IMG/VR virus record: IMGVR_UViG_2521172672_000002
Coordinates: 6,931 to 70,930 of that record
Strand: one strand, 5' to 3'
Source of the DNA: a virus
Lineage: Duplodnaviria > Caudoviricetes
DNA length: 64,000 nucleotides
The stretch's first letter is position 1, and each line of letters starts with the position of its first letter. The notes beneath the pieces were generated by a model. That model ran no database searches and was not told the DNA's origin. It saw nothing but the letters and a program-made list of their open reading frames with translations. Both the position numbers and the translations under genes were made by a program. Below, piece by piece: positions 10,592 through 38,795 of the stretch.

Positions 10592-10639
10592 TGGTAGTGG
10601 CCTGCGATAGGGCCGGCAACTGCCGACAAGCGGGATGCG

Positions 10640-10864: not shown

Positions 10865-11065
10865 CAGCTAATCCCTTGTTGATGCATAAGTATAGGTCCA
10901 GTGACGCTTCTGCAGGGGAGCCACCAACAGACGTTGGAGCACATGCCCACGTTAACCAAGCCCCAAGTCAATCAGGGATGAGCCGCCGTGTACAGGCCAT
11001 GACGCCTAACCTATCTTCACTTTTTTCAATAGTTTGGATAGGATTCTCAAAAAGAGAACGTATAA

Positions 11066-11587: not shown

Positions 11588-11606
11588 TCAGTTTAGGCGT
11601 ATCTAG

Positions 11607-20939: not shown

Positions 20940-20995
20940 GCTTTCCTCCGGGCATAAAAAAACCGCCAGATGGCGGTGCATTCATTCGCTTGGCG

Positions 20996-21577: not shown

Positions 21578-21628
21578 GATTCCTCCAGGCGTAAAAAAGC
21601 CGCCCGAAGGCGGCTGTGTTCTTGGGAA

Positions 21629-21973
21629 CTACAAGCAATCCCTGGCAGCTTTTTCAATAGCGCTTCTACCGAGCCCTGGACTCCACGCCATCCTTTGCTT
21701 GAGCGTCACAGCGCTGCCCGAACCCGATCTGCGGATATCAAGCAGCTCATCGGTCATATTGCTCTGGGCAACCCATAGTCGGTAACCGTCTGAGGTTTCA
21801 ACCATTGCCGAGTCAGCGCGTGCCGCTTGCCACTTTGGGAAAACACAAAGCGCGTATGCCTTTGGGTCTTTAGGAGTGGCGGCAACGATCGTTGGCTCGT
21901 TTTTCTCTAGGTCCGCAGGCGAGACACATCCCGCCAGCAACCCCAACCCCAATACCCCGATCAGAACTCGCAT
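21629..21973 (-). CDS. Moron lipoprotein (paralog 3)
   Basis: MRVLIGVLGLGLLAGC; C-x4-WQ and terminal Cys; terminator at ~21593-21615. Confidence 0.8.
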   Translation of the reverse strand: MRVLIGVLGLGLLAGCVSPADLEKNEPTIVAATPKDPKAYALCVFPKWQAARADSAMVETSDGYRLWVAQSNMTDELLDIRRSGSGSAVTLKQRMAWSPGLGRSAIEKAARDCL

Positions 21974-21990
21974 GTGAACTCTCTCAATTT

Positions 21991-22560
21991 TCATGACTTC
22001 ATTACTTCTTCGAGAGGCATGTAGCATTTACCAATGAAGAAACTGAAACAAGTACCTGCCTGACCTCTCATGCGCTCGACCTCGGAAAGCTGCCTGCGCT
22101 TCTCTGCTATCGGAATTCTCAGGCTCCCGATAGCCTTTACTGTGAGCAAAAAGCGAAGGTAGTCCCCACCGTCAGCATCAATTTGGCCGATCTCGGACGC
22201 CATCGTAGCCCCAACAGAGAAAACTCTTCGGAGCCTTGTGACTGGAATCCATATTCCCTGCCAGGAGTGCTTTGCTATTTTCGGCAGCTTCTCCGGCGGC
22301 AGTGACTCCAGGCGCCCATGCTGCTGCAGCACTCTAAGCGAGTTCCTGGCTTGCATCGTCGCGCAAAACTTGTAAGCCTCAATGCCATCAACGCTATCTA
22401 GCCTTTTCTTATACGGCAAGCGCAAAAATCGCTCCTCGAAAGGCGAAAAGCTTTCAACCAAGATGACGCCATTGGAGTCTGGCTCGCCCTGGCTGACGAC
22501 TATGTGGTCAGGGCCATCCCAAGCAGTCGAAGTTGCGGTAGTCACTTTGAGGGCATCCAT
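21991..22560 (-). CDS. Hypothetical moron protein
   Basis: 189-aa ORF in the K-I insertion hotspot; no motif recognised. Confidence 0.6.
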   Translation of the reverse strand: MDALKVTTATSTAWDGPDHIVVSQGEPDSNGVILVESFSPFEERFLRLPYKKRLDSVDGIEAYKFCATMQARNSLRVLQQHGRLESLPPEKLPKIAKHSWQGIWIPVTRLRRVFSVGATMASEIGQIDADGGDYLRFLLTVKAIGSLRIPIAEKRRQLSEVERMRGQAGTCFSFFIGKCYMPLEEVMKS

Positions 22561-22654
22561 GTCAATCTCGGGAAGACTGTATCACCTAAATCGGAGGCTT
22601 CGGACTGCAAGATGCGAGAAGCCCAGCGCGGGGCTGGGCTTGTCAGGCATGAAG

Positions 22655-23131
22655 CTATGCTACCCATGCCATAAGATCATGCCACCACGTGGTAGGAAGC
22701 TTTTGTGAAGTCATACCACGCTCTATTACCGAATCGTTGTAGGCCGGGATACGCAAGGCCTCGATGGCCGGTGCTTCAATTTGGCGCAGCTTCCAAATCT
22801 TGGCGTCCAGCTCGTTCAGGCTCAACGTTTTGGCTCGCCGCTCAAGTGCTGTATAGCGCTTGTAAAGATCGGAGCAGACATACCGCTTACTCCCAGGAGA
22901 GCAGACCACATCCAGTGCAGTAATCACTGCGGTAACAAGAGCCGCAACCCCGGCAAGCTTGGGGCTGCTGGAGAGGAAGCCCGCAAAAGCTGAACTGCCA
23001 GCAACGACAGTCACCAGCTTGAAAAGACCATCAATCTTCCCAAACAGGCGAGCCTGAAGGTGAAAATATCTCGAGGCATAGCAGATATCGCCGACCGCCT
23101 CAAAATGGCTGCGTTCATCGGCTCTATCCAT
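22655..23131 (-). CDS. Two-TM protein, SLATT-like
   Basis: Helix-TM-TM-helix layout (YASRYFH...TM TM...YKRYTALE). Confidence 0.6.
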   Translation of the reverse strand: MDRADERSHFEAVGDICYASRYFHLQARLFGKIDGLFKLVTVVAGSSAFAGFLSSSPKLAGVAALVTAVITALDVVCSPGSKRYVCSDLYKRYTALERRAKTLSLNELDAKIWKLRQIEAPAIEALRIPAYNDSVIERGMTSQKLPTTWWHDLMAWVA

Positions 23132-23136
23132 GTTGA

Positions 23137-23244
23137 TTAGCTCTTTTGCTGAGACGGTGGCTCTGACGGTGCAGCTGGAGCCTGTGGCGCGGCAGGCGTC
23201 CTGGTGGGCGGTACGTGGCTTTTGAAGAACTCATCTTGAGACAT
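23137..23244 (-). CDS. 35-aa Pro-rich peptide
   Basis: GGAG RBS; MSQDEFFKSHVPPTRTPAAPQAPAAPSEPPSQQKS, ending 5 nt before the 2TM gene. Confidence 0.5.
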   Translation of the reverse strand: MSQDEFFKSHVPPTRTPAAPQAPAAPSEPPSQQKS

Positions 23245-23337
23245 GATAACTCCAAGTGTCATTGTTGGTGCTGGCAATTTACCACAGCCCAACTGCCCTG
23301 GCGCCCTCTGGCGAATCCGCTCCTGTCCACCCAGCCA

Positions 23338-23440
23338 CCCTGGACGCATCACCAGTAACTGCCCGACACCCTGCCGTAGTAGCGTTGTGCCTCCCAACGA
23401 CCCGCCCTGGTCCGTTGCGGGAAAGCCCACGGACTGGGGC
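23338..23440. repeat. ~100-bp intergenic element, copy of 5215-5315
   Basis: Direct sequence similarity; lies between divergent moron genes. Confidence 0.85.
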
Positions 23441-23461
23441 ATGATGACCTAGGAGGCCCAT

Positions 23462-23683
23462 ATGAGTAACAACACTCAAGAAATCTTCAATTACACAGGC
23501 TCCACGTTGCTAACTCTGGAGTGCATCCTGTCTGGCCTCGCCGACCAAATCGCCAAGACGCATGGTTCAGAGGCACTAGCAGAAGCCCATTCATACGCAC
23601 TCAAAAAAGCGGCCAGTCATCCGGGTGGTCCTATCAAGCCTGATGTTGAGGCCATTTCGAGGTTCTTCAGTGGGCTCAAGTAA
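23462..23683 (+). CDS. Hypothetical moron protein
   Basis: AGGAGG RBS, opposite strand to the tail genes. Confidence 0.7.
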   Translation: MSNNTQEIFNYTGSTLLTLECILSGLADQIAKTHGSEALAEAHSYALKKAASHPGGPIKPDVEAISRFFSGLK

Positions 23684-23867
23684 CTCCAAGCCTTAACGCC
23701 TCCTCGATATGTTGAAGCCGACGCTCAATCAGGTCGGCTTTCTCAGGCAGGCGCCGCTCCCTATCTTTCGAATAGGTCAAGCGCTCGGCACTGACGATGA
23801 AACTCTTCGCGAGCTGGGCGTTGCTAATGGTGGTGCCGTCCTTTCCTGTTGCGTGAGACTGAGCCAT
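23676..23867 (-). CDS. Small hypothetical protein
   Basis: AGGGGGA RBS; MAQSHATGKDG... Confidence 0.5.
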   Translation of the reverse strand: MAQSHATGKDGTTISNAQLAKSFIVSAERLTYSKDRERRLPEKADLIERRLQHIEEALRLGVT

Positions 23868-23892
23868 ATGATCCCCCTGCGGCGAAGCCGCT

Positions 23893-24648
23893 TCATTTCG
23901 CGTCCCGATGACGCAACACAAGGCGCATCCGATCGAGCCAGGGCCCGCCGAACACAATGATTTCTGATGGCCGCCCCAGCAAGTGGTGCAGCATGAATGG
24001 GCCCGGTCCAAACACATGGCTGCCCTCATTCGGCAGCTGGGCATCAGCGCCAAGGTAGATACCAGCATGGTTTGGATGGGCGGTGCGCCCCACCGCCATG
24101 ACGATCAAGTCGCCACGCTGCGGCTCGCTCACTTGGTAGAAACCGGCGGCCTCATAGGCCTGCTCGTACAGGCTCGGTCCGTCGGCCTTTTCCCACCAGC
24201 CCTCTTCCCGGGAGTAAGCGGGAAACTCCAGCCGCCATTCTCGCTTGTACCAATCGGCGCAGGCCTGCCAGCAGTCCCAAGCGCCGTGCACGAACGGCCT
24301 CCCAAGCAGCGGCGTGCTGCCGGTTGGCGTGATCGTGCGCAGATCACCCTCCGGCCAAGACAATATGTACCAGGGCAGGCCCGTGGCCTCGCACATGGCT
24401 AGGTCGCGCGGTGACGGCCTGCTGGTGGCGTCGGGATGCGAGTGAACGATTCCAATCACCTCGCCCCGATCTTCCGCCTCGGCGTACTGCTCTGGTGCAA
24501 TCCGGAATTCCTCAGTCGGGTCGTTGGACGCGTTGGTGCACGGGTGATAGACCTGCCTACGGCTAACCTGCAGCAGCAGGCCGCAGCACTCGCGCGGGTA
24601 TTCAGCCGCTGCGTGCACCTGCACGGCGGTGAGTATGTGTTTGCGCAT
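23893..24648 (-). CDS. Tail assembly protein K (JAB/MPN + NlpC/P60)
   Basis: YPRECCG, VHSHPDA...PS..D, GRPFVHGAWDC and NHAGIYLG. Confidence 0.95.
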   Translation of the reverse strand: MRKHILTAVQVHAAAEYPRECCGLLLQVSRRQVYHPCTNASNDPTEEFRIAPEQYAEAEDRGEVIGIVHSHPDATSRPSPRDLAMCEATGLPWYILSWPEGDLRTITPTGSTPLLGRPFVHGAWDCWQACADWYKREWRLEFPAYSREEGWWEKADGPSLYEQAYEAAGFYQVSEPQRGDLIVMAVGRTAHPNHAGIYLGADAQLPNEGSHVFGPGPFMLHHLLGRPSEIIVFGGPWLDRMRLVLRHRDAK

Positions 24649-24650
24649 GG

Positions 24651-25400
24651 TCAGCTCCGGGCGATCAGCGAGACGGCAGGAAAGCCGCCGAAGGGAAGTT
24701 CGTTGCCCTGGCCATGCCGGACGGTGCACCCGGTATCCAGACAGCCGTTGCATTGGTCCTTGGCCGGGTCCGAGGTCGGGTTCCCATCCATGTCATAGTA
24801 GGGACCGGTGTAGCCACAGTTTGGCCCTCGGTACCCTGCCGTCATTGCCCAATGGCATAGCTGCGTCATCTGACGCCCAATCGTTTCGCCGCCCACATCG
24901 CCCGGGCTTGCAAGCTCCCAGGCTACAGTGGTGCCACTCTCAGACACCTTCTGGTCGATATACCAGACTTCGATCGCCTCCTCCGCCGGATCTGCGGAAG
25001 AGTTGCCGCCGGGAAAATTCGCAGCGTCCAAGTACTCGGCGAAGGTGTGCCGCATGGTCAGCTTGAACTCAAGCAAGTTGTCGAAGGCCAAGCACAGCGC
25101 GGTGATCCGGCCATTGACGTTGCCCACGCTGAACGTCGGCCGCACCGCAGTGCCGTCGGAGTTCGCCTCGATGCCTTCAATCTGCACTGGCCAGGCGCTG
25201 TACTCGTTGCCTTGCCACCAGATGGACTTGGCCTGCAGTTGCTCGGCATTGGCGCCGGCTGCTCGCAACTCCTCGGGTGAATGGGGAATGGCGTGGCCAT
25301 GGAAGCGCAGGGTGTCGGCGCCGAAGTCCGAACCGTCGAGCTCGAACAGCAGCACCTCGCTGCCAGGCTCCAGGGTCTGGATGTCCTTGATCAGTGACAT
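24651..25400 (-). CDS. Minor tail protein L
   Basis: LFELDG, C-terminal Cys cluster (CHW..YRGPNCGY..C..C...C) and PFGGFP. Confidence 0.95.
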   Translation of the reverse strand: MSLIKDIQTLEPGSEVLLFELDGSDFGADTLRFHGHAIPHSPEELRAAGANAEQLQAKSIWWQGNEYSAWPVQIEGIEANSDGTAVRPTFSVGNVNGRITALCLAFDNLLEFKLTMRHTFAEYLDAANFPGGNSSADPAEEAIEVWYIDQKVSESGTTVAWELASPGDVGGETIGRQMTQLCHWAMTAGYRGPNCGYTGPYYDMDGNPTSDPAKDQCNGCLDTGCTVRHGQGNELPFGGFPAVSLIARS

Positions 25401-25409
25401 GCTGGTTCC

Positions 25410-25748
25410 TTATGGGTGAAAAGCCCGCTCGAGGGTGGCGGTCACTTTGAAACGTCCACCACCCACCGGGGTAGGCTTGGGGTCTTTGCAGGTGAATAAG
25501 CCAAGATCCCCGAGCGGCGTGGTCCACAGAAAAGCCTTAGCCCCGCCGTGCCTGTCGAAAAACTCCATGACTTTGCGTACTTGGGCCTTCGTGCCGGTGA
25601 CGGTGATGGGGTAGCTGTCTTCCTTGTTGTTGGGCCCGTCGCCGACCACCTGCCGATACCCGCCCCCAAACCGGGATTCGCGGGTGCGATAGCTGATCTC
25701 GGGGGTTTCACCGCGCTGGGTTGGCCAGCTGAATTTCTCAATGGCCAT
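25410..25748 (-). CDS. Minor tail protein M
   Basis: FGGGYRQ..GDGPNN and FFDRHGGAKAFLWTTP. Confidence 0.92.
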   Translation of the reverse strand: MAIEKFSWPTQRGETPEISYRTRESRFGGGYRQVVGDGPNNKEDSYPITVTGTKAQVRKVMEFFDRHGGAKAFLWTTPLGDLGLFTCKDPKPTPVGGGRFKVTATLERAFHP

Positions 25749-28700
25749 CACCGTCTCCCGCTGGTGTTTCGATGGCTGACACCACCTGGGCGCCATGAGT
25801 CGGCCACCGCCCTCTCGGCAGCCATTTGCATTTGCTTTTGCATGTTCTGCTGAAGCAGCGTTTGATCGAGCTGCATGCCTTCGTTGCTCCTGTCCTGCAT
25901 GACCAGGCTCACAGGGGCGGATAGAGTAATGGAGGTAGCTCCACCGCCTACCGCCCTTACCCCAAGCTGACCACCTGCAGTCCTGGTCAAAGGCATGACG
26001 GCCTCATCGCCTGCCTCTCCCATCACGCCCATCCTGCCGCCGGCCATGCCGAACGCCGTGGGCTTACTCACAATCGAGTTGGTGAAGGCGCCGCCATTTG
26101 CAAACAGCTGCACGCCGTTCGACCAGGCGCCGCCAAGAGCTTGAGGGAAGTAGGTGCTGCTGTAGCCTGCCTGCGATGCACCCAGATTTGAGGAAACCGC
26201 GCCCGCCGAGCCGGCCTCCATGCCATTACCCCCACCGCCGCCAAAATAGGCGGATGCCGCAGTGGCGCCCCAGCTCACCAGGCTGCCAAGCAGCCCAGAG
26301 GCAGCACGCTGGGTCTCGATCCGGACCATGTCAGCAAGGATCGACTTGGTGAAGTCTGCGAACGAGAACTTGCCAGTCATGGCGAAGTTGACGACCGCAT
26401 CTTCCATCGAGCTGAATGCATTGGTGAACAAGGATCGCGTCTGCCCGGCAACATCCCGAGCCTGCTCCAAGTAATTTTGGAAGGCAGACGATGCACCTTT
26501 GCGCCAGTCGCCCTGGGCAGCTGTCATCTGGTCGTAGTTGGCGATGGTGGTTTCCTGCAGGTCCTTCTCGGTTTTGTTCAGGGCCGCCAGCTTCTGGCTG
26601 TACTCATCAAGGCTCATGCCGCGGGAGCCGTCGCCGTACTGGTTGGCCAGGTCCAGGCGCTGTTGGTTGATGCGATCAGTGATTCCGTACTGCTGATCCT
26701 GCAAGCCGCGCTGACGATCACCCAGTCCAAGCCCGTCTGCGGAGCGCTGTCCCTGCAGCCTTAGCGCTGTGACCTGCTGGCCGAGCGCGTCGGTGTAGGT
26801 CTGCACTGCCCTAGCCTGCTTAGCGAGCCGGCCCTGCTCGTTTGTGGCAAGCACCGACAGTTCGGTATCGGCATCCTTCTGTGCCTTGACCATCGCAGCG
26901 CGGGCATCGGCGATCTTCTGGTCAAGCTGGATTCGCTGCTGAGCGCTGGTGCTGCTACGCCCTTTGGCCTGCTCCAAGGCTTTGATCTCAGCCTCGTAGG
27001 CGTTGGTGACCTCTGCCTTCTGCTGCTCGATGATCGCAGCGCGCTGGGCGGCGTACGATTCCTGAGAGATCAGGCCGGCCTTCTGCGCCGCATCAAGCTC
27101 CTTCTGGTGATTCTTGTACTCCGCGAGGATGGCGCCCAGGGCATTCTTCTGGTCGTTGAATCCGGAGAGGTCAAGCGGCTTGGACCGGCCGGCCGGATCC
27201 TTGAACTGCTTGGCGATGTCAGCTTCGACCCGCGCGATTCGCTCCGGCTTCAACCGCTCATCGTTGGGATTTTTTTCCCTGATGTCATCGAGCGACTTCC
27301 TGTATTCCTTGAGCTTTTCGGCACGCTTCTCGGCGTTCGTCCATGCCGACTTTTCCAGCGCGTCGACTTTGCCCATCGCGACAATTGCCGCCTGCTGACT
27401 GCGTGCCTCATCCGCTTTCGACCTTGCAATGCCTTCCTGCTCCTTACGGTAGAGCTGCAAGGTCCGTAGCCGGCTTTCGTCTTCCTCGCGGGTGCTGCCG
27501 CGCTCCATCAGGTTCGGATTGTCCTCCCCGATAATCGGAATGGCGCTATAGGATTGAGGATCCGCTAGTTTGCGTTCTAGCGCCTCGATTTGCTGCGCCA
27601 GTGTCACTTCTCTGCCAACGCTGTACGTTGCGTCGAGCGCTCCAGCCGCTGCGGCCTTAATTCCCTTCCACGCCTTCTCTATCAGGCCAAGATTATCCGT
27701 GATTTGACCTGAACGCTCCTTGATGGTGTCAGCGTACGTATCGGTGAGCAGCTTGGCTGCTCCGATGGTGTCACCCTGCTCCTTCAAAGCTACGATCTGC
27801 GAGTACGTCGAGGCGGTCAGGAAGTTGTACTGCTCGTTCAGATCCTTGGCTGCTGCGACCGGATCCTTGCCGATCTTCACGAACTCGGCGACGGTCTCTT
27901 CCACTGCGCGGCCTGTAGCATCGCGCCATTCAAGCGCAGCCTCGGTGATCTCGACGAAGCTGCCGGCGGCAACCTTCCCGCTACCGGCTAACTGGGTCAG
28001 CACTTCCGCTGCGGCGCCGGTGGTGCCGACGGTGGCCGACACCTGGGCAGCCATTCCAGACAGGCGATCAGCAGTGGTGCCTGCAGCATTGCCGGAGGTG
28101 ATGAGAGCCTTTTGGAAGCCGACCGCTTCCTCGCTCCCCTTGTAATAGGCGTAACCCAGTACGCCTACAGCGGCAGCTGCGACTGTGAAGGGGTTGACCA
28201 GGCCGAGGACGTACCCGCCGAGCGCTTTCACAGCAGGCCCTACGCCGCCGAACATGTCCTTGAGCTGCCCGCCCTGCTGCAGCAGCACGGTGAGCGGTGC
28301 CTGCCCTCCCTGAAGCGATACCACGATGTCGGTGAACTGAGCTGGCACATTGCGTAGCGCCGCCGCCGTGGCCTTGGCCGACATACCGGTTTTGTTCAGC
28401 GCTGCGTCTGCACCTCCAAGTGCAGTTCGGGCCTGGTCGATCTTTGTCTGGTACTCACCGAAGGTCTCGGCATCCAGCGCGCCGCTGGCGCGGTAGCCCT
28501 TGAGCTTCTGCTCCATCTGATCCAGCCGACCCAATGCCGCGACAGTCGGATCAATCTTGCCCAGCAGTTCGTCCAGTGCCTGCCCTTCCTCCCGGTGGGC
28601 CCCGGCCGCCTTCCTCGCCGCCTCCGCCTGACGCTCTTCCGTTGCGATAAGGGCCTGGGCGCGGCTGTTGATGGCCGCCTGACGGCTGGCGCTATCTGAG

Positions 28701-29221
28701 AGTACGGCGTTCGCCTGGGCGGTGACCTCCACACTCTGTTCAGTGGCCCGATTGAGCGTCTGAATATACTGGCTCGCCTCCAAAGAGGCTTTGGCCACGG
28801 CCAGAATCCTAGCCTGTTGCTCGTCAGCGGACTCAGCGGCACGACGCCCAGCCTGGGCACCGGCATCCGTGGCAGTAGTCAGCGCCTGCTGGACTTGCCC
28901 GGCCTGCGCGGCCTCAGCCCGGAATAAGCCCATGTTCGCTGCGGCGCTGCTGAATGCCGTGGATGCGCTGGTAACGGCGCGGCCCACGGTAGCCATCTGC
29001 TGCGCGAGTTCGGTCTGCTTGGCGTTGAGCGATTGCAGCTCCTGCACGATCTGCCGGGTGTCACCCTGCAGGCTGCCCAGCGCAGTCTCCCACGCGCGTC
29101 CGGTTCGCCCAGCCGACTCTTCGCTGCGCTTGCCGGCGTCCGTCAGTTGGTCGAGGTTATCCTTGGCCTCAACAGCATCACCGGAATCGATCTGAAGACC
29201 GAGGGAAGCAATGGTGGTCAT
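25748..29221 (-). CDS. Tail tape measure protein
   Basis: 1157 aa, Ala/Gln-rich; PAQFTDIVVSL.GGQ.PL.VLLQQGGQLKDMFGG; C-terminal GVMGEAGDEAVMPL. Confidence 0.95.
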   Translation of the reverse strand: MTTIASLGLQIDSGDAVEAKDNLDQLTDAGKRSEESAGRTGRAWETALGSLQGDTRQIVQELQSLNAKQTELAQQMATVGRAVTSASTAFSSAAANMGLFRAEAAQAGQVQQALTTATDAGAQAGRRAAESADEQQARILAVAKASLEASQYIQTLNRATEQSVEVTAQANAVLSDSASRQAAINSRAQALIATEERQAEAARKAAGAHREEGQALDELLGKIDPTVAALGRLDQMEQKLKGYRASGALDAETFGEYQTKIDQARTALGGADAALNKTGMSAKATAAALRNVPAQFTDIVVSLQGGQAPLTVLLQQGGQLKDMFGGVGPAVKALGGYVLGLVNPFTVAAAAVGVLGYAYYKGSEEAVGFQKALITSGNAAGTTADRLSGMAAQVSATVGTTGAAAEVLTQLAGSGKVAAGSFVEITEAALEWRDATGRAVEETVAEFVKIGKDPVAAAKDLNEQYNFLTASTYSQIVALKEQGDTIGAAKLLTDTYADTIKERSGQITDNLGLIEKAWKGIKAAAAGALDATYSVGREVTLAQQIEALERKLADPQSYSAIPIIGEDNPNLMERGSTREEDESRLRTLQLYRKEQEGIARSKADEARSQQAAIVAMGKVDALEKSAWTNAEKRAEKLKEYRKSLDDIREKNPNDERLKPERIARVEADIAKQFKDPAGRSKPLDLSGFNDQKNALGAILAEYKNHQKELDAAQKAGLISQESYAAQRAAIIEQQKAEVTNAYEAEIKALEQAKGRSSTSAQQRIQLDQKIADARAAMVKAQKDADTELSVLATNEQGRLAKQARAVQTYTDALGQQVTALRLQGQRSADGLGLGDRQRGLQDQQYGITDRINQQRLDLANQYGDGSRGMSLDEYSQKLAALNKTEKDLQETTIANYDQMTAAQGDWRKGASSAFQNYLEQARDVAGQTRSLFTNAFSSMEDAVVNFAMTGKFSFADFTKSILADMVRIETQRAASGLLGSLVSWGATAASAYFGGGGGNGMEAGSAGAVSSNLGASQAGYSSTYFPQALGGAWSNGVQLFANGGAFTNSIVSKPTAFGMAGGRMGVMGEAGDEAVMPLTRTAGGQLGVRAVGGGATSITLSAPVSLVMQDRSNEGMQLDQTLLQQNMQKQMQMAAERAVADSWRPGGVSHRNTSGRR

Positions 29222-29224
29222 GAT

Positions 29225-29541
29225 CTACTCCATGGATTCGGCCATGACGGCCAGGGCCTCGACTTCCATCACGCGGAGATCGGGAAAAATATCGGGAAGG
29301 TCGCGGCGCTTGATGCCCAGCATCGAGGCCGTGGTGGGGACGGCCGTGTAATCCAGCCCGGACGGGCCGCCAGGGCCGACTCGCCATTGCGTGCCCATTG
29401 CGTCGAACAGGCGGAAGGCAGGCCAGGCATCTGGCCACACCTCTACTTCATCTTCCGCAATGTCAGCCGGGGTCAGGCCTAGAGCCGCCAACTGCTCGGC
29501 AGAGGGACCCTGCTCATAGCACGCCCGGGCGGCCGCCCTTA
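29225..29541 (-). CDS. Tail assembly chaperone GT C-terminal part (DUF1799-like), reached by -1 frameshift
   Basis: VWPDAWPAF..F..M.TQWR.G.GG..GLDY; frame open from the slippery site. Confidence 0.85.
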
Positions 29542-29922
29542 GTTTCCCAAGCGGGCCGGGCTGTAGGCAGCCTGGAAGGCGTCGATGACGGCCTTTGGCG
29601 CCCCCGTACAGGTACGCGCCAGCTCAAGGATCGCTTTCTGGCTGAACTTGTCCTCCAAGTCCCACCCGGTAACGATTTCGCCCAGTTGCTCAGCCTGCAG
29701 AGCGATCTCGCCGGCGGTCACCTCTTCCCAAGTGGCGTTGTCGGCCTTGGCCTTCTCTGCCCAGGCGTCGCGCGCCTTGTTCCAGCGATCAAACATGCCA
29801 GCCAGCGTCACCCGGTCCATGTAGCGGAACTCGAATTCCACCGGCACCGACTCTCCACCGATTCGAGGCACCTGCACCTCGGCAGTAAAGGTCGGGTTCT
29901 GCGCGATTTTGATCTTCGCCAT
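29539..29922 (-). CDS. Tail assembly chaperone G
   Basis: NPTFTAEV.VP...ARLGN*, between major tail and tape measure genes. Confidence 0.9.
   Translation of the reverse strand: MAKIKIAQNPTFTAEVQVPRIGGESVPVEFEFRYMDRVTLAGMFDRWNKARDAWAEKAKADNATWEEVTAGEIALQAEQLGEIVTGWDLEDKFSQKAILELARTCTGAPKAVIDAFQAAYSPARLGN
29542..29548 (-). other. Programmed -1 frameshift slippery heptamer GGGAAAC
   Basis: TTG GGA AAC TAA at the end of G; the -1 frame reads CTA AGG GCG... into the GT ORF without a stop. Confidence 0.85.
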
Positions 29923-29931
29923 GAGGTTTCC

Positions 29932-30591
29932 TTAGGCAGCAGCCAGGTAGCGAACCGGACGGCCCGAGAGCGCGATGCTGATGGTTCGGGTCATCAGGTT
30001 GTTGCGCTCCATGGTCGGAGTGGTGGTGATGCTCACGTAGCCCGGATAGAGGATCTGGTCGCCGTTGGGCAGCTTGAGGCGGACGACCGTCAGCTCTTTG
30101 CTGTCGCCGTAGGCTTCGACCAGGCCCACGTAGGCAGCCGCTGGTTGATCCTCGACAGTGATCGACAAGGTGATGGGGTTGCGATTGGTGGGGAACTGGC
30201 GATCATCATCGTCCTCCAGGTACCCGACGGTGAGGTACTGCTGCTCGCCGCCGGAAGAGGTAAAGGCAGTCACCTTGGAGATCTGCGCCCAGTTGCTCAC
30301 CGGGATCACAGAGCCCACACCTGCGCCGGCGGTGTACTTGTCGGCGTTGGTGGTGTTCAGGCCGGCCATCGAGAACTTGTCAGTGGCAACACTGGCTGCG
30401 CGGACAGCGCGGTCGTTGATAAGCGACCAGCCGGAGCTGACAACCAGGACGTCGCCGTTCTTGATGTTGTGCCCCGCAGCGGTGGCCACGGGAGGAGCAG
30501 CGTTGGTCAGGGCAGTGAAGGCGACGGCAGCGGCGAGTACGCTGGCGATTTCCAGTACAGAGCCGTTCGGCAGCGGGAAGCGTGCGGCCAT
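29932..30591 (-). CDS. Major tail tube protein
   Basis: LPNGS, SGGEQQY..VGYLEDD...FPT.RNP; position before the chaperones. Confidence 0.9.
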   Translation of the reverse strand: MAARFPLPNGSVLEIASVLAAAVAFTALTNAAPPVATAAGHNIKNGDVLVVSSGWSLINDRAVRAASVATDKFSMAGLNTTNADKYTAGAGVGSVIPVSNWAQISKVTAFTSSGGEQQYLTVGYLEDDDDRQFPTNRNPITLSITVEDQPAAAYVGLVEAYGDSKELTVVRLKLPNGDQILYPGYVSITTTPTMERNNLMTRTISIALSGRPVRYLAAA

Positions 30592-30651
30592 GGGATTTTC
30601 CTCTTGGGTATAAACGAAAAAGCCCGCACGCGGCAGGCTGTGGAAGCGGGC

Positions 30652-30840
30652 TCAGACGTTCCAACTGAACGTGAGCCCCGCAAGAAATCGGCGCTTGATA
30701 TCGGCCTCCATGCGCTCTTTCGGGGTTTCTGTACGCAAGCCGACCGATGCGATCAAGGCGTCACGTATGACCACTTGACCATCCTGGATCAAGAACGGCG
30801 GCACAATCTCTGCTGGCTGAGTGGTGGGGGCATGATCCAC
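30652..30840 (-). CDS. Small protein with a DUF1983-like motif
   Basis: PFLIQDGQVVIRDALI resembles PFSVVGGQTFISDAYI near the J C-terminus. Confidence 0.5.
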   Translation of the reverse strand: MDHAPTTQPAEIVPPFLIQDGQVVIRDALIASVGLRTETPKERMEADIKRRFLAGLTFSWNV

Positions 30841-30860
30841 GGAAATGACCTCGAGTTTGG

Positions 30861-31274
30861 TTACTGGTCCGCGACGCCGCGGTAGGTGAAGCTGGTCGGG
30901 ACCGTATAGGTCGCCGACTCGGTGATGGTCGGGCCCTGCTCCAGTGGCTCGGTGAGCAGGCCTTCGAAGCCGCTGCGGCTTAGCTCTGTATCAACCCGGA
31001 ACAGGCTGCTCAGCTCGTCGACCAGTGATTCGGCAACGCCCAGGGGCTGGCCTGCCGGGCAAACGATGCTGATCTGGTAGACGCCGGTGTATTCGTAGGC
31101 GTCGCCGCCCAGGTATCGGCAGGTGGTGCTGGCCGGCAGCAAGTAGGCTCGAAGGTAGGTCTCGCCGGACCCGGCCTCGAATCCCTCTTCGAAGTTGGCG
31201 ACCCGAATCGGGCGCGCCGTCGCCCAGGCCATCAGCTTGATCTCGATGGCCTGGCGGGCTCGTGCATGGCTCAT
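30861..31274 (-). CDS. Tail terminator-like protein (DUF4128-type)
   Basis: MSHARARQAIE...YLRAYLLPA.T...YTGVYQISIV.PAG; now also in frame with the scaffold fragment. Confidence 0.85.
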   Translation of the reverse strand: MSHARARQAIEIKLMAWATARPIRVANFEEGFEAGSGETYLRAYLLPASTTCRYLGGDAYEYTGVYQISIVCPAGQPLGVAESLVDELSSLFRVDTELSRSGFEGLLTEPLEQGPTITESATYTVPTSFTYRGVADQ

Positions 31275-31441
31275 ACGCTGTTGTTCCTGATGGCTTCGTC
31301 GACGATGTGCTGGAAGTTGGCCAGGGTGACCCGGACCATGCCGGCTGGGGCCTGGGTTGAATGCCCGTATTCCAGCGGAATCGCATATGGCAGATTGTTC
31401 ACGATGTAGGCCGTCTGGCCGACGGTCAGCGCCTGCACCTG
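31271..31441 (-). pseudogene. HK97 gp10-like head-tail protein, C-terminal 56 codons only
   Basis: QVQALTVGQTAYIVNNLPYAIPLEYGHSTQAPAGMVRVT...* with no start codon. Confidence 0.85.
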
Positions 31442-31442
31442 G

Positions 31443-31574
31443 CTTGGACTTGAGGCCCGAGACCTCCACGTCCAGGAATTTCTGTACCTCTCCGCCGAGC
31501 GCCGCCTTCAGCGCGGCAGTTTGGGTTTCGTCGAGGGTCAGGCCGTGGGCGGCCGGGTCGAAGTCAAAAGGCAT
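31443..31574 (-). pseudogene. Capsid scaffold-like protein, N-terminal 44 codons only
   Basis: AAGGGGA RBS; MPFDFDPAAHGL...EVSGLKSK, then an abrupt switch to gp10 sequence; position after the head morphogenesis gene. Confidence 0.7.
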
Positions 31575-31665
31575 GTGGCTATCCCCTTGGGACTGGTTGG
31601 CCCGCCTTGCGGGCATAAAAAAACCCCGGCATTGCCGAGGTTGCTTGAGTTAGGGGTTAGGTCTG

Positions 31666-32016
31666 CTAGAGATGTATTCCATGCCTAGCCAGATAATCCA
31701 AAATTGGAGTGAGCCTAGTCGGCCCCATACCCTTCAGGGCCCTTAGTTGCTTCTTGCTCATCACTCGCAATTGGCCGAAAGTTCGAACATCGTTGTTCGC
31801 AAGCGAGTTGTAGGAAAGTCCGAGATTTGCGTGATAGAGATCAAAATCGTCTGGGGGTTGAGAATGGGACATAGATTCGGCCTGCTGCACAAGAGCATTC
31901 TTGAGCTCGTTGGCCGCAGCCAGAGACTGGCATTCGACGACCGTCTTGATAGCCTTCCCATCGTAACGGGTAATGATGTACCGGGTGACCTCCCGGACTT
32001 GGAACTCGGGCTGCAT
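31666..32016 (-). CDS. Moron with RNA polymerase alpha-CTD-like helix-hairpin-helix domain
   Basis: SYNSLANNDVRTFGQLRVMSKKQLRALKGMGPTRLTPILDYLARHGIHL parallels the alpha-CTD pattern N.L....I....L.......L....N.G...L..I...L...G..L. Confidence 0.7.
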   Translation of the reverse strand: MQPEFQVREVTRYIITRYDGKAIKTVVECQSLAAANELKNALVQQAESMSHSQPPDDFDLYHANLGLSYNSLANNDVRTFGQLRVMSKKQLRALKGMGPTRLTPILDYLARHGIHL

Positions 32017-32112
32017 AATCTATCTCCGGCCTGCGCACAGGCTGAGTTAAGGGCATTTTAAGGGCCTCGGATATTAACCGAGGCGTCATTTGCCTTCAAC
32101 GCTGCGCAATTC

Positions 32113-33207
32113 TCACGATATGCCCGCACTATGAAAGATCTGTGGCTCTAGCTGTTTGACCTGGGCGAGCGTCAGCGGCTTGAAGTTCTTGTCCAACTGC
32201 AGCGAGGCGAAACGCTCAGCCGTGAGGCCTCCGTCTCGGAACAGCTTTGCACGCACCGGGCCCAGCGCCGCGTCCTGGAACGCCGCAGACTGCGTCTTGA
32301 GCCATTGGTAGTAGCTGAGGCTGGCCGAGACCTGCGCGCCGCCAGAGGCGCCCACTGAGGCGCGTGTGGCACCCTTAGCGAATGCGGCCGACAGCTTGGT
32401 GATCGGCGTAATGGTCGTCCGGCAGTTGACGTGGAATGGCGGAACCGGCCCCTTCCCTATCTCAAACTCGCGTCCGTCCAGGCTTTTGCACTGCTGGCTG
32501 GTCTTCCGGTCGAGGGTGGCCACGATCCGGTAGCCCGGGACGAACTCGGCGTTTGCGGCCAGCGTCTCCATGCGTGCCGTTGCAGACACATGCTGCACGG
32601 CGGTGTGCACCACCGAACGAGCGTTGCGGTTACTGACCGCCAGCACCCCATCGGTGAAGTTTTGTGCGGCCGTGCCGCGTATAGCCTGGGTGATCTCTGC
32701 GTTGGTCTGACCCTGCACCACGCCAAGGCGGATGGCATTGGTCACCCGGGTAGACTCAGTGCGCGTCCAGCCGCTCAGGAAGGGCTTTAGCAGCGTACCG
32801 CCGTCGATCCCTGCCACCTGAAGAGGCTGCGTATTGATCGCGGCTCGGATCAGCGAGTCGGTCGGCATGATGGCATCGATGAGCAGTGCCTTCGCCAGGC
32901 TACGGCTTTCGAACGCGGCTAGGTACTGCGCGATGTCGACCAGGTCGGCCTGCATGCGGTCGCCGAAGGCTTGATAGATGCCCAGTAGCTTCCCGCCGAC
33001 TCTCGACAGGAATTCTTCCAACCGGCTCCGGCTGTAGGTGGTCAGCTCGCGGCGCGTGAGCTGGTCCCGCACCTGGGTATCCACCTGGCGCAGCACTGTT
33101 TCAAACTTCTTCACCTCACCCGCTTTAAGCCGCTCCAGCAGCACCGCGTGCCGACTGACCTGTTCCAGCAGCATCTCGTCCGCCGTTTGCGTCGGTTTTG
33201 TCGTCAT
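32113..33207 (-). CDS. Head morphogenesis protein (SPP1 gp7 / Mu F family)
   Basis: ATLDRKTSQQCKSLDG and PPFHVNCRT. Confidence 0.92.
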   Translation of the reverse strand: MTTKPTQTADEMLLEQVSRHAVLLERLKAGEVKKFETVLRQVDTQVRDQLTRRELTTYSRSRLEEFLSRVGGKLLGIYQAFGDRMQADLVDIAQYLAAFESRSLAKALLIDAIMPTDSLIRAAINTQPLQVAGIDGGTLLKPFLSGWTRTESTRVTNAIRLGVVQGQTNAEITQAIRGTAAQNFTDGVLAVSNRNARSVVHTAVQHVSATARMETLAANAEFVPGYRIVATLDRKTSQQCKSLDGREFEIGKGPVPPFHVNCRTTITPITKLSAAFAKGATRASVGASGGAQVSASLSYYQWLKTQSAAFQDAALGPVRAKLFRDGGLTAERFASLQLDKNFKPLTLAQVKQLEPQIFHSAGIS

Positions 33208-34585
33208 CGTCGGTGTCCAGGTTGATGCCGGCTGACTCGCGCTCGTCGCTGATCAGCTCGGCCTCTTCGTCGTAGGCCCGCTCAGGCAGCTTGCCAGTGG
33301 TGAGGTACTGCCAGTAGGTGTCGGCGCTGATGGTTCCGGCCATGACGCCCTTCTGCAGCTCGGCCAGCACCTGGGCGTTGACCTCAGGGATCACAAACTC
33401 AGGCTTAACCGTGAAGACCACGTCGTCCGGGTTGTAGCCGGTCCATTCAGCGGCATACCGCAAGGCCTGCTCAATAGCCGACGCTGCGGTGATGACGATG
33501 CTGTGCAGCGTGGCGTGCTGGTCGTTCTGGCGGGTCTTGCGGGCCTCGCCTGATTCAGTGCCGGACACGTCCATGACCTTGGCGCCAGCTTCGAGGGCTG
33601 CGCTCTTCTGGTCAGACATGGCCGTTCGGACAGCCTCAACGCCTGCCCCTTGGAACTCCAGATAGCCGCACTGACCCTTGGGTCCGAGATCCCAAGCTGC
33701 AGACGGCCCGGTCACGCTGAGCTCCACGCTTTCGTCCAGGCCGGACACCCACGGCTGTGGATGGCTGGTCTGGTGCAGAGCGGTGAAGTAGTCAGCGCTG
33801 AGCTGGTACGACTTCAGCGCAGCCCTGGCCATGGTCAGCAGCGGGATCTCGTCCACGTCCGGTGAGTTATCGGTCGAGCCGCAGTAGATGACCGGGATGT
33901 ACTCGAGCCCACGCACCAGCTGGTTGCCAGCGCCAACGGTGCCAAGGGGGCGCTCATCATCGATGAGTTCGCCTGCTTCATTGCGCACAGCCGTGTAGCA
34001 GACTTGCCCCTGCATGAAGAACTCGCGGTAGACCGTCTGGCACTCATGGCTGTAGCGGTCCTCCGCCTTCTTGCGGAACTCGCGGAACACGGCCAGCACC
34101 AGGTCCTGGCGCCCGCCTTGATCGGCGGTATCCCAGTTAATGCCGTTCCGAGCAGCGTAGGTTGCAAAGTAAGGCTGGCCCTGGTCGTCCACGTTGACCA
34201 CAAGCGGCACACGCCCGTGGGAGATCGTCTGCCGGACGATGCGCAGGAAGAGTTGAGTCAGGCCGAAGCCGTCGGCGGTGGCGTTCTCTTCGACGCCCTT
34301 GAGCCCACTGGGCAGCTTCACCTCAGGAATGAGCCGGGAGACCAGGCCCATCATCGAGCGCAGCGAATCGCGCACCCAGTGCTCGTACTGCGCCCGCGCT
34401 GTGTAGTTCTGATAGAGATAGGCATTGCCCTGGCCATCCAGCTTTTCAGCCTCGACCATGCCGCTTGGCTTGGGCAGGTTGCGTGGACTGCCCTTGATGG
34501 CGCACTCGCCTTCCAGAGCATCGTCCATCATCCGCCACTCTTCGATGTGAGCGTCGTACTCTGGGTTGGTGGATTGAACAGGCAT
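33125..34585 (-). CDS. Portal protein (DUF4055-type)
   Basis: Between TerL and head morphogenesis; PLLTMA...YQLSADY...LH...PQP and ESGEA motifs. Confidence 0.88.
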   Translation of the reverse strand: MPVQSTNPEYDAHIEEWRMMDDALEGECAIKGSPRNLPKPSGMVEAEKLDGQGNAYLYQNYTARAQYEHWVRDSLRSMMGLVSRLIPEVKLPSGLKGVEENATADGFGLTQLFLRIVRQTISHGRVPLVVNVDDQGQPYFATYAARNGINWDTADQGGRQDLVLAVFREFRKKAEDRYSHECQTVYREFFMQGQVCYTAVRNEAGELIDDERPLGTVGAGNQLVRGLEYIPVIYCGSTDNSPDVDEIPLLTMARAALKSYQLSADYFTALHQTSHPQPWVSGLDESVELSVTGPSAAWDLGPKGQCGYLEFQGAGVEAVRTAMSDQKSAALEAGAKVMDVSGTESGEARKTRQNDQHATLHSIVITAASAIEQALRYAAEWTGYNPDDVVFTVKPEFVIPEVNAQVLAELQKGVMAGTISADTYWQYLTTGKLPERAYDEEAELISDERESAGINLDTDDDDKTDANGGRDAAGTGQSARGAAGAA

Positions 34586-36075
34586 TACGCCAAACCTCCG
34601 ATGCGGCGACTGCCGCCTGTGCGTTTACGTCGCGCCATGGCAACGGCGAAATAGCGGAACCCGTCTGCCGGGTGGGATGACCAGTCATGCAGGGGCTTGT
34701 CTTTCCAGCATCCGCGCTTGTCATCCCACTCCTTGCGGTAACTCTCCAGGGCGGTGATGCCCTCTTCGCATTTGGATTGGTCGAAGGCGCAGTTCGGCAG
34801 AACTTCGCGCACTTGCTCGATGCCTTCGTCAACTCCCAGCTTCGGCACGACCTTGAATATCAGGCTGTACTTCTGGCCGTCGATCTCGTAGCCCTCACGC
34901 GCGAGTTCGCGTCGAGTCTTGCCGTCGCTACCAAATTCCCTGTTGTCGATGTCGTGCGGCCCCCAGTGCTCCCCGTAGGCGTAGCCCCGATCCTTGAGCA
35001 CCTTCATGTAGTGCCGCAGGCCCTCGCCGCTGTTCTGGTAGAAGTCGATGACGTGGAATTCTTCGCCGACGATCCGGACGAACCAGATGGCCGTGGAGTC
35101 GCCCACACCGATGTCCCAGAACGTGTGCACCGGTAGGTGGCTGTTGTCTGGCAGCTTGCCGATGCGCTGTGCGGCGTAGAGCTTGGTGAACTGCTTCGCG
35201 TAGTAGGCGCCCTCGATCGTCTGCTGGAATGCCTCGGCAGGGATCGACGGGTACTCGCGCTTCATGTCGTCGCCGAGGGTCTTTTCCTTGGCGCTGTACC
35301 AGGCGCGCTGGCCCGGGTTGGTGACGATGCCGTGCTTGGCGGTCAGGTCGTCGAAGTACTTGGTCAGGCGGTCGGGGATGACCACGCCGGTCGGGTCCAG
35401 CCAGTACAGCGGGTTGCGCCACCAGCTGAAGAAGAAGAACTTCCAGTCGAGCAGGCCCAGGGGCACCCCGGCCAGTTGCTGCTTCTCAGCGGACTGGCTG
35501 TAGTCGAAGAAGTAGCCCGCCCGCCCCTCCGCCGTCGACTCGATCGTAACGAAACACTCTGCGGCGACAGCCTCGAAGGCGCCGGTGACGATCTCTCGGG
35601 CTTTGTGGGGAAACTTGGCACAGATCTTCCCGAACTCGGATACGTGCAGATACCGTAGAGTCCCGCCCCGAAAGGATGTGGACACGTAGAGCGATCCGCC
35701 TTTGCTGAACACAAGCTCGCCAGCAGCATCGTTGCGAGCAGGATTAGCAGCGCGTATTTCCTTGGGAAGGTGGTCGTACGCATACTTGATCTTCTCGCGG
35801 AAAAGCCGCTTGGCGTCGTTCAGGGTGTGGGCGATCAGGGCGCACTTGGCAGCCTCGAATAGCGCGGCGTCGAGTTGGACGATGCAGACCAGGGTGGTAA
35901 ACCCTAACTGCCGAGCCTTGAGGATGATGTTGCGGGTGTGCATCCCCTGGAAGTAGTCGATCTGCTCCTGCGTCATGCGGAAGCGGACCTTCTTGCCCTG
36001 CTTGTCCGTGATGAAGTACAGGTTGTTCAGCCGCCAGAACCGGTCCCGAAGCAGTTTCATGTGCTCGGGCTTCAT
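34585..36075 (-). CDS. terL: Terminase large subunit
   Basis: ILKARQLGFTT Walker A, LHVSE Walker B, ESTAEG, WDIGVGD and SHPADGFRY. Confidence 0.95.
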   Translation of the reverse strand: MKPEHMKLLRDRFWRLNNLYFITDKQGKKVRFRMTQEQIDYFQGMHTRNIILKARQLGFTTLVCIVQLDAALFEAAKCALIAHTLNDAKRLFREKIKYAYDHLPKEIRAANPARNDAAGELVFSKGGSLYVSTSFRGGTLRYLHVSEFGKICAKFPHKAREIVTGAFEAVAAECFVTIESTAEGRAGYFFDYSQSAEKQQLAGVPLGLLDWKFFFFSWWRNPLYWLDPTGVVIPDRLTKYFDDLTAKHGIVTNPGQRAWYSAKEKTLGDDMKREYPSIPAEAFQQTIEGAYYAKQFTKLYAAQRIGKLPDNSHLPVHTFWDIGVGDSTAIWFVRIVGEEFHVIDFYQNSGEGLRHYMKVLKDRGYAYGEHWGPHDIDNREFGSDGKTRRELAREGYEIDGQKYSLIFKVVPKLGVDEGIEQVREVLPNCAFDQSKCEEGITALESYRKEWDDKRGCWKDKPLHDWSSHPADGFRYFAVAMARRKRTGGSRRIGGLA

Positions 36076-36077
36076 GG

Positions 36078-36671
36078 TCAGGCATCCTTCGATAGTTCAT
36101 CCATCAGCTGCGACAGTTCGTCGGCGTCTTTTGACTGCTCCTTGTCGTCCAGGCCGAATGCAGTGCGCTCGAGCAGCTGCAGGTTCTTCATAGCCGACGA
36201 CAGCTGGAAAAGGGTCTTGGCGTTACTGGGCAGGGCCACGGCGGCGAGCATTGAGCTCCGGCGGAAGCCGCTCTCATCATCGGCGGTCTCGCGCTCGATT
36301 TCGTCTTCGATGTCCTCACGCCGTTTGATGGTGGTGAGCAAGTCATCCATCAGCAGGTTCGCAAGGTTCGCGGCTTTGCGAATGTCGCGGCGATGACTGC
36401 GAACGACCGTCGCGCCCTCTTCCGCCGCCTCTTCGATGATCTCCGCGTCCCGCTCAGGGTTCGCGCATTGGTCTTCGCGAACCTCGCCGCGAACCAACTT
36501 GTTGCGAACCTCTTTGCGGACTTGCTCGGAAAGGTCCCGCTCCCAGCCCAAGGCCTTGGCCTTCTTCCTGATAGCGGTGTCGCTCACCCCGTTACGGTCA
36601 GCGATGGTGCGGATGGAAAGCGCCCCAGCCCGGAAGGCTCGTTCGATCGCCTCCCAGTCGGGTTGCTTCAT
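36078..36671 (-). CDS. terS: Terminase small subunit
   Basis: PDWEAIE...SIRTIA...GVSDTAIRKKAK..GW HTH, directly upstream of terL. Confidence 0.88.
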   Translation of the reverse strand: MKQPDWEAIERAFRAGALSIRTIADRNGVSDTAIRKKAKALGWERDLSEQVRKEVRNKLVRGEVREDQCANPERDAEIIEEAAEEGATVVRSHRRDIRKAANLANLLMDDLLTTIKRREDIEDEIERETADDESGFRRSSMLAAVALPSNAKTLFQLSSAMKNLQLLERTAFGLDDKEQSKDADELSQLMDELSKDA

Positions 36672-37711: not shown

Positions 37712-38023
37712 TCAGTTCGACCGCTTGCACAGGTCACAGTCCAGGCGCCGGCAGATCCAGCGCTTGACCCGTGGCCAGTAGGTGATTACGAACATGTGCC
37801 GGATACCGGCTAGGGCCAGAGCGACGTGCATCGTCACGCCGGCAGTGTTCGGGGTAAAGAACATCCGGTCCGACCTGGCCAGGATGGCGTAGCCGCTCAG
37901 GGCGATGACGATGTACAGCATCTTGCCTATCACCCCATCCCTGACCTTGCCGCTCAAGACTGCCCAGGTAGCCCATAGCGCGATGAACCCAGCTGCCAGG
38001 GCGTTGACGTATTCGAGAATCAT
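37712..38023 (-). CDS. Three-TM lysis-associated membrane protein (holin/antiholin-like)
   Basis: Overlaps the holin stop codon; three TM helices. Confidence 0.65.
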   Translation of the reverse strand: MILEYVNALAAGFIALWATWAVLSGKVRDGVIGKMLYIVIALSGYAILARSDRMFFTPNTAGVTMHVALALAGIRHMFVITYWPRVKRWICRRLDCDLCKRSN

Positions 38024-38346
38024 CCGTTTGGCCCTCCGAACTTGGACCTGATGACAGACCAGAGATCAGCGGCCTTGATGGCGCGGGTTACGGCAGCGAT
38101 CAGTGAGCCACCAAAAGTGCCCAGCAGGAACCCGACGCCTGCCACGCTGCGTGGCTCGACGATCCCGAAGTACGCGCTGACCATCCCAGTAAGGTAGTGA
38201 GCGCAAGCCATACCAGTGAGCAGGAAAAGAATCCAGGCCTTGCGGTCGGTGAGGTCGTCTTTGTGCCATCGGGTGGCAACCAGGGCCCCCAATAGGCCCG
38301 CTATTGCCCAGTCGAGCTTATCGAGCAGACGGTGAAAAAACTCCAT
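38020..38346 (-). CDS. Putative holin
   Basis: Three TM helices, charged C-terminus, first gene of the late operon. Confidence 0.75.
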   Translation of the reverse strand: MEFFHRLLDKLDWAIAGLLGALVATRWHKDDLTDRKAWILFLLTGMACAHYLTGMVSAYFGIVEPRSVAGVGFLLGTFGGSLIAAVTRAIKAADLWSVIRSKFGGPNG

Positions 38347-38405
38347 GCGCTCGACTCCGTATGTGCATGTAAAATCCCCTGGCCAACAAAGCTGAGGACA
38401 AGGGA

Positions 38406-38795
38406 ATGAAAAAGTATGTAGCCGCGGTATCGCTCGCAGTGCTAGGCGTGGCTCAAGGTGTGCAAGCAAGCGATTTCACAAGCGTGGAGATCTGCAAGGC
38501 TGCAATTTCCGTGGAAATGAGCCGACCCACCAAAAAGATGAAGACCAGATCGCATGGTGCGGTACCCGAGATCTCTTACAAGCGTCCTGATGGAGACTCT
38601 TTCAGATACCGATGCCAGGTGAGCGACGACACTGTTGTTTGGTCAACGTTCTTGAACGACACCCGCACCTGGGGGCGCTGGCGGAACCGTTATTCTGAGG
38701 GAGATGCAACAACCACCTATTCGGTAGCGGGCGGCCAACTGACAATCCGCAATGATCAGTCTGGCGATAAAACCTTCAGAAAATCAGATTTCTGA
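38406..38795 (+). CDS. Secreted hypothetical protein (moron)
   Basis: Signal peptide; ICKAAI...YKRPDG..FRYRC...GRWR motif. Confidence 0.75.
   Translation: MKKYVAAVSLAVLGVAQGVQASDFTSVEICKAAISVEMSRPTKKMKTRSHGAVPEISYKRPDGDSFRYRCQVSDDTVVWSTFLNDTRTWGRWRNRYSEGDATTTYSVAGGQLTIRNDQSGDKTFRKSDF

Follow-up and report, generated by a model that had tools for sequence, protein, structure and literature searches.

The window, a stretch of 64,000 nucleotides corresponding to bases 6931–70930 of the 70,930-bp IMG/VR provirus record IMGVR_UViG_2521172672_000002, contained a temperate siphovirus genome of approximately 54 kb, extending from approximately 10.2 kb to the right end of the window. In the packaging and head region, all on the minus strand, there were genes for TerS (36078–36671; phrog_1206, 5.4e-66), TerL (34585–36075; phrog_2472/phrog_2), the portal protein (33125–34585; phrog_145, 1.3e-120), and a full-length head morphogenesis protein of 364 aa (MuF/SPP1 gp7-like; 32113–33207; phrog_241, 1.7e-136), which showed 94% amino acid identity with the homologue in the related locus L006 over residues 1–364 of 364. 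Between the head morphogenesis and scaffold genes was a moron, orf116 (31666–32016, minus strand; 116 aa), with a weak helix-hairpin-helix match (RNA_pol_A_CTD-like, PF03118, E 6.7e-4) whose 19.8 bits were under the Pfam cut-off of 23.8. Just past orf116 and upstream of the scaffold start, a terminator-like hairpin with a T-tract (31642–31622, minus strand) was recognized as a consensus match only, with a stem of 9 pairs including 6 GC pairs and the tail TTTTTATGCC. The scaffold start and the end of a Neck1 gene were followed by the tail terminator gene (30861–31274, minus strand; 137 aa, MSHARARQ...), and the interval between the latter and the major tail gene held a small variable ORF, orf62 (30652–30840, minus strand), with a further terminator-like hairpin, detected in a hairpin scan, on its 3' side (30639–30621, minus strand). 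The late operon thus held two small ORFs, each with a terminator-like hairpin after it. No sigma-70-like promoter match was found in 30500–33300, and no tRNA gene in the window.

A complete lambda-like tail module occupied 13425–30591 on the minus strand (phrog_584, 569, 680, 24, 14, 18, 30, 32, and 31/2589). It encoded a major tail protein, G/GT-like chaperones, a tape measure protein (1157 aa), M-, L-, K-, and I-like proteins, three ORFs without assigned function, and a J-like central fiber (2518 aa), and the proteins assigned to phrog_24, 14, 18, 30, 32, and 31/2589 were matched over nearly the full profile or protein. The J-like fiber gene (13425–20981, minus strand) was very long; the first approximately 1,330 residues of its product matched phrog_31, and the C-terminal half matched several families of unknown function. 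Conservation with the relative G002 was limited to 17368–21983 (92%), which suggested that the distal half of the fiber is a swapped host-range region. The lysis genes were split, with the holin gene (38020–38469, minus strand; phrog_2359, 6.7e-40) upstream of the terminase genes and those for the endolysin (12101–12547, minus strand; phrog_873, 4.1e-57) and the Rz-like spanin (11607–12104, minus strand; phrog_312, 4.2e-38) past the tail fiber at the far end of the late region. Also encoded were NinG, P- and O-like replication proteins, Ant, RecT/YqaJ, an excisionase (xis; phrog_9668), an integrase (62807–64000; phrog_1, 2.9e-57) whose ORF reached the end of the record, and, on the opposite strand, a CI-like repressor. 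Profile or homologue coverage indicated that the tail, lysis, packaging, replication, repressor, and int/xis genes were full length, which confirmed the gene inventory of the original prediction (tail, holin, endolysin, spanin, CI, O/P, and int).

Between the head morphogenesis gene and the tail terminator gene, the region expected to carry the capsid and head-tail adaptor genes was interrupted by a deletion junction at 31442/31443, immediately after scaffold codon 44 (31443) and one nucleotide before Neck1 codon 169 (31442). On one side, the start and first 44 codons of a scaffold gene (31443–31574, minus strand) had 97.7% nucleotide identity with L006 9208–9339 and, by tblastn, 98% identity over residues 1–44 of 257; the full-length L006 protein matched the head scaffolding family phrog_206 (6e-56). 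On the other side were one nucleotide, the last 56 codons, and the stop codon of a Neck1/tail-completion gene (31271–31442, minus strand), with no credible start of its own and with a tblastn match to residues 168–224 of 224 (91%). The 55-aa frame at 31271–31438 matched phrog_169 'tail completion or Neck1' at its C-terminal end alone (profile positions 210–258 of 275, E 2.9e-22). Base-by-base alignment placed the missing sequence at 3,256 bp relative to L006, L014, and L009, with the diagonal shifting from 9107 to 12363 at the junction, and at 3,257 bp relative to L032 and L012. The comparison of the flanks with related prophages, which had been proposed for sizing the deletion, therefore gave a length of 3,256 bp, or 1 mod 3. 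It also bore out the claim that the capsid and adaptor genes are absent, together with the abrupt switch near 31442 into the last 56 codons of the truncated gene. The name 'HK97 gp10-like' given to that gene had no backing from Pfam, as the full-length Neck1 protein of a relative matched no family even at E ≤ 10 (nor did the relative's scaffold and Hc1 proteins), but its functional class, neck or tail completion, stood with phrog_169. The suggested CCAGG microhomology was wrong: only AG, 2 bp at 31444–31443, was common to both ends.

In L006, the block corresponding to the deletion encoded the remainder of the scaffold protein (257 aa in full, phrog_206), a major head protein of 325 aa (phrog_247/PF20036), an HeH-domain protein of 101 aa, the adaptor Ad1 (phrog_493), the head closure protein Hc1 (phrog_161), and residues 1–167 of Neck1 (phrog_169). 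The window had thus lost scaffold codons 45–257, the major capsid, HeH, Ad1, and Hc1 genes, and Neck1 codons 1–167. A major capsid gene elsewhere in the element had been named as a finding that would speak against a head-less prophage, and the profile search was run over the whole 70.9-kb record; it yielded no match to the L006 capsid protein (E ≤ 10), to the head families phrog_247, PF20036, PF05065, and PF03864, or to the scaffold family phrog_206. As positive controls, the relatives G001 and G002 both gave matches to phrog_247, PF20036, and phrog_206, and neither gave one to PF05065, as expected for a phrog_247-type capsid. The left 17 kb of the record, in which 10 + 10 ORFs were scanned, held unknown ORFs, an acetyltransferase gene, and phrog_914 paralogues, and no structural genes. 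This sequence to the left of the phage genes inflates the length of the record. The completeness given by CheckV and IMG/VR for this automatic provirus call was 100%, though the capsid block was absent.

To compare gene order and spacing, we fetched the 80 IMG/VR loci whose head morphogenesis proteins were the best 80 of 204 relatives, and 41 further loci (L089–L129) from GTDB species representatives, mostly of the P. putida group. Gene order in the intact relatives (IMG/VR loci L006, L010, L011, L014, and L032, the P. putida-group loci L089–L129, and a contig of the public run X10) was the same as in the window, namely TerS, TerL, portal, head morphogenesis, scaffold, capsid, HeH, Ad1, Hc1, Neck1, terminator, and major tail, and the flanking genes had 84–100% nucleotide identity with those of the window. 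Whereas all the intact relatives carried the scaffold-to-Neck1 block of 3.26–3.8 kb, the window did not; the distance from the scaffold start to the Neck1 end was 3.26–3.8 kb in every IMG/VR locus with both flanks among the best 80 of 204 relatives. From the head morphogenesis start to the terminator start, the window measured 1.93 kb, against 4.71–6.52 kb in 60 of 60 IMG/VR loci reaching the terminator (the other 20 of the 80 end before it and were left out of the count) and 4.55–6.54 kb in all 38 GTDB loci that carry both genes (the remaining three of the 41 have no head morphogenesis match and were likewise left out). None of these 98 loci holding both flanking genes (60 from IMG/VR and 38 from GTDB) was head-less. 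Neck1 started within the first 20 residues in 60/60 IMG/VR loci and 39/41 GTDB loci. A different capsid type was present in 15 of the 41 GTDB loci, with normal spacing where measurable. The group was highly mosaic; in L006, for example, the head morphogenesis gene, the scaffold start, and the terminator gene were 86.7%, 97.7%, and 98.3% identical to those of the window. Megablast of the phage collection returned only two distant P. syringae phages, which matched the portal and terminase genes only and were uninformative on the size of the deletion. Among the small ORFs, orf116 was found by blastn in none of the 80 IMG/VR loci and was common only to the window and X10 among the intact relatives compared, and orf62 had a blastn match in one of the 80 (L009, 69.6%). 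Two of the GTDB loci, L096 and L097, lay on two contigs of one genome (Pseudomonas bharatica CSV86) and gave identical values for all eight proteins compared, suggesting either a double lysogeny or a duplicated assembly.

All sampled words of the stretch 30900–32000 were present in eight public runs, and 96% of them in a ninth. The nine runs came from eight studies under seven organism labels plus a synthetic metagenome, and seven of them were flagged as possible sources. Contigs, rather than raw reads, of four runs were aligned to 29900–34600. The run X2 had one 54-kb contig identical to the window, and X2 may be the source of the record. In X9, which has another organism label and belongs to another study than X2, a 2,703-nt contig with a depth of approximately 1,240 spanned 31358–34060 with no differences and hence bridged the junction. 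The X9 contigs were split into pieces of 60–250 nt only at 30847–31358 and 34060–34121, and 8 of the 35 aligned contigs were 95–99% alike; this fragmentation may reflect a second related phage sequence in the sample. In X10, a 35-kb contig matched 31443–34600, which takes in the scaffold start through the portal gene, and differed at a single position among 3,158 nt (99.97% identity). At the junction it continued with 3,255 letters absent from the window and then matched 30865–31444 with 30 differences in 580 nt. An intact near-twin of the head-side region therefore exists in another public data set. The two matching pieces of the X10 contig overlapped at 31443–31444, consistent with a 2-bp microhomology. 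The layout in X12 was the same as that in X10, with approximately 3.5 kb between the two pieces. The stretch 30606–30865, which was uncovered in both X10 and X12, corresponded to the region of orf62, replaced there by 42 other letters. The X10 contig also carried orf116. A 24-mer across the junction had no match in IMG/VR, the GTDB species representatives, or the JGI metagenomes, searches from which the record itself may have been excluded. The RNA runs X15–X20 held 7–17% of the sampled words.

The deletion joined the scaffold start to the tail terminator gene in one continuous frame, as had been proposed. The scaffold frame runs into the terminator frame because the deletion is 1 mod 3 in length and the terminator's own ATG overlaps the Neck1 stop codon (ATGA). 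The 251-aa ORF of the original prediction (30861–31616, minus strand) exists and reads MPFDFDP...EVSGLKSK, then 56 codons without a match, and then the terminator. Its ATG at 31616 sits in the T-tract of the hairpin following orf116, and the ATG at 31574 has AAGGGGA 7 nt upstream; the likely start is therefore ATG 31574 rather than 31616, giving a fusion of 237 codons (30861–31574, minus strand) composed of 44 scaffold codons, 56 out-of-frame codons of the Neck1 remnant, and the 137-codon terminator. The internal ATG of the terminator is preceded by AGGA 10 nt upstream, and the predicted product may be the fusion, a native-size terminator started at this internal ATG, or both. The terminator matched PF13554 (4.3e-21; 75.8 bits against a cut-off of 27), phrog_179 (6.8e-29), PDB 2l25 (2e-17), and 'Terminator protein gp14' (1.2e-6). 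When the fusion aligned with 35 terminators was used as input for AlphaFold2, the mean pLDDT of ten-residue blocks was 26–48 for residues 1–90, 61 for the block 91–100, and 83–97 for the terminator domain. Foldseek with the terminator model returned 2l25 (E 1.9e-8), the FCWL1 head-to-tail interface chain (9jlf_D, 1.7e-7), the T1 stopper-tail terminator (1.2e-6), lambda gpU (3.8e-4), and also a monocin cap. Both the score and the fold thus identified a tail terminator (PF13554, lambda gpU-like fold), and the model suggested that the predicted 237-aa fusion is an intact terminator domain with a probably disordered N-terminal tail of approximately 100 residues. In 33 of 48 relatives, at least 57 codons ahead of the terminator ATG were free of stop codons in the terminator frame. 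The open linker is thus a background property of this GC-rich DNA, and about one deletion in three would give the same in-frame join, which looks incidental.

These results suggested, with a probability of roughly 85%, that the locus arose through a single inactivating deletion in a temperate siphovirus prophage of lambda/HK97 style from the Pseudomonas putida group, and the deletion is probably recent. One illegitimate-recombination event with the 2-bp microhomology would have removed 3,256 bp, and with them most of the scaffold gene, the major capsid gene, the small HeH-domain gene, the head-tail adaptor and head closure genes, and three quarters of Neck1. Its length of 1 mod 3 would have happened to set the scaffold start in the terminator frame, producing the predicted 237-aa fusion, which is a by-product and no indication of selection. 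The event looks young because the head and packaging genes left behind have kept their full length and the intact head side in X10 is nearly identical. The original prediction had allowed that the element is just a recent inactivating deletion, and this reading was supported by the clean loss with its 2-bp microhomology, the near-twin in X10, the lack of decay in the residual head and packaging genes, and the count of 0/98 head-less relatives. Judging from its gene content, the element would be unable to build or close a capsid, which makes it a defective prophage. Consistent with this assignment, it has the temperate gene set with int, xis, and repressor and has lost at least one virion-essential gene relative to its intact kin. 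After induction, excision, replication, tail production, and cell lysis would probably all still take place, and headless tails may form. If the seven organism labels of the runs containing the junction each stand for a different strain, the loss of the head has persisted for some time; the spread may reflect several strains or the re-sequencing of one strain.

The chance that the capsid block is present in the cell and was dropped by the assembler appeared negligible. Contigs of X2 and X9 bridged the junction with no differences, nine runs held 96–100% of the sampled 1.1-kb words, and the missing block was unique sequence with no repeat; we found nothing in favor of an artefact in this automatic provirus call rated 100% complete. 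That the join arose by illegitimate recombination between two phage genomes, either two residents or a resident and an incoming phage, was considered unlikely, and it would have had the same head-less, defective outcome. The shift in identity to X10 at the junction, from 1/3,158 differences on the head side to 30/580 on the tail side, and the mosaicism of the group, as in L006 (86.7%, 97.7%, and 98.3% across genes), are in keeping with such a joint. The tail-side differences would mean either that the ancestor was itself mosaic or that the join formed between two phage genomes; however, a mosaic boundary may lie within the deleted block or result from a later exchange in X10, and the gene order and spacing on both sides of the junction were those of a single genome. 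We regarded as very improbable a helper-dependent element that packages its own DNA using the scaffold, capsid, adaptor, closure, and Neck1 proteins of a co-resident related prophage. Its own TerS, TerL, portal, and head morphogenesis genes were kept, double lysogeny in the group may be exemplified by L096 and L097 in one genome, and the break-up of the X9 contigs at 30847–31358 and near 34060–34121 may point to a related second phage in that sample. Against this, the run X2, analyzed in full, had a single contig of at least 85% likeness on 29900–34600 and no close portal-to-tail relative, although gaps in such alignments prove nothing. Known phage satellites have reduced, specialized genomes, unlike this element, a full phage minus one block; where a satellite has a reduced genome without most structural genes, approximately 54 kb with a full set of tail, packaging, lysis, and replication genes was found here.

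A further interpretation is that the element is an incipient F-type tailocin, in which case induction would free flexible tails without heads, these would kill related pseudomonads, and selection would maintain the loss of the head; we considered this improbable. The lambda-like tail genes and those for the holin, endolysin, spanin, CI-like repressor, and Ant are present at full length, and the junction stretch occurs in runs under seven organism labels. A precedent is rhizoviticin of Allorhizobium vitis VAR03-1, described as a chimeric prophage of siphovirus type that has no genes for head formation, still carries early and replication genes, and is on its way to becoming a tailocin, at an early stage (PMC10811719). 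Rhizoviticin resembles the element in keeping tail, lysis, and early/replication genes without capsid genes, but it lacks all head and packaging genes and has only an integrase remnant, whereas genes for terminase, portal, head morphogenesis, xis, and int are all retained in the element; the killing by rhizoviticin was demonstrated by mutants and microscopy (PMC10811719). According to two reports on F-type pyocins of P. aeruginosa (10.1101/2021.02.16.431561, PMC13455828), the pyocin clusters have no Neck1 gene and no in-cluster terminator, and particles made without the terminator still kill, with uncontrolled length. By analogy, tails may stay functional despite a lost Neck1 or a changed terminator, and they could plausibly form in the element. 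Pyocins and the element have in common a lambda-like tail set (tube, chaperones, tape measure, and M/L/K/I/J-like proteins), lysis genes, and the lack of an intact Neck1; the pyocin clusters contain no head, packaging, replication, or integration genes and have the terminator encoded elsewhere, whereas the element keeps packaging, replication, and integration genes and has its terminator in place, fused to a scaffold remnant. Our literature search found no paper on a head-less prophage of this group.

Several observations argued against the tailocin interpretation. Measured by the features of F-type tailocins, the complete non-contractile tail module and the lysis cassette were found, but the head, packaging, replication, and integration genes were not absent, only scaffold, capsid, and connectors being gone. 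TerS, TerL, portal, head morphogenesis, O, P, RecT/YqaJ, xis, and int were all kept, as in a phage minus one block rather than a trimmed locus. The absence of head-less forms among 98 related loci indicated that there is no recurrent route to tailocins in this group, and selection has not had time to leave its mark, given that the head-side flank differs from that of an intact phage by so little (99.97% identity). The in-frame fusion can be put down to chance, and what speaks for the tailocin is its gene content; to our knowledge, killing is not a general property of bare siphovirus tails. It is improbable that the locus represents the earliest step in the birth of an F-type tailocin, that is, an inducible, excising prophage minus its capsid block that releases bactericidal flexible tails and makes its terminator as a scaffold-terminator fusion from the strong scaffold start. 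An inactivating deletion of this kind amounts to ordinary decay of a prophage and does not demonstrate a new headless "tail weapon".

The locus provides a clean, base-resolved example of one-step prophage inactivation with intact twins for comparison, and it cautions that a provirus rated 100% complete may be without capsid-coding capacity. If head-less tails of the element do kill, it would be natural starting material for studying the origin of tailocins from siphoviruses. Two repeated gene families were also observed. The family phrog_914, of unknown function, had four paralogues, all on the minus strand, at 265–765 of L088 and at 3952–4308, 4371–4814, and 21629–22027 of the window; one lay within the tail module, flanked by the K- and I-like genes, and the others were in the 17 kb to the left of the lysis genes. 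A small gene with a signal peptide-like start (MTRLA.CLLLLATGASA) was present in two copies with approximately 81% column identity near both ends of the element, at approximately 7827–8105 and 60686–60924 on the plus strand, and the gene was also found in the relative G002.
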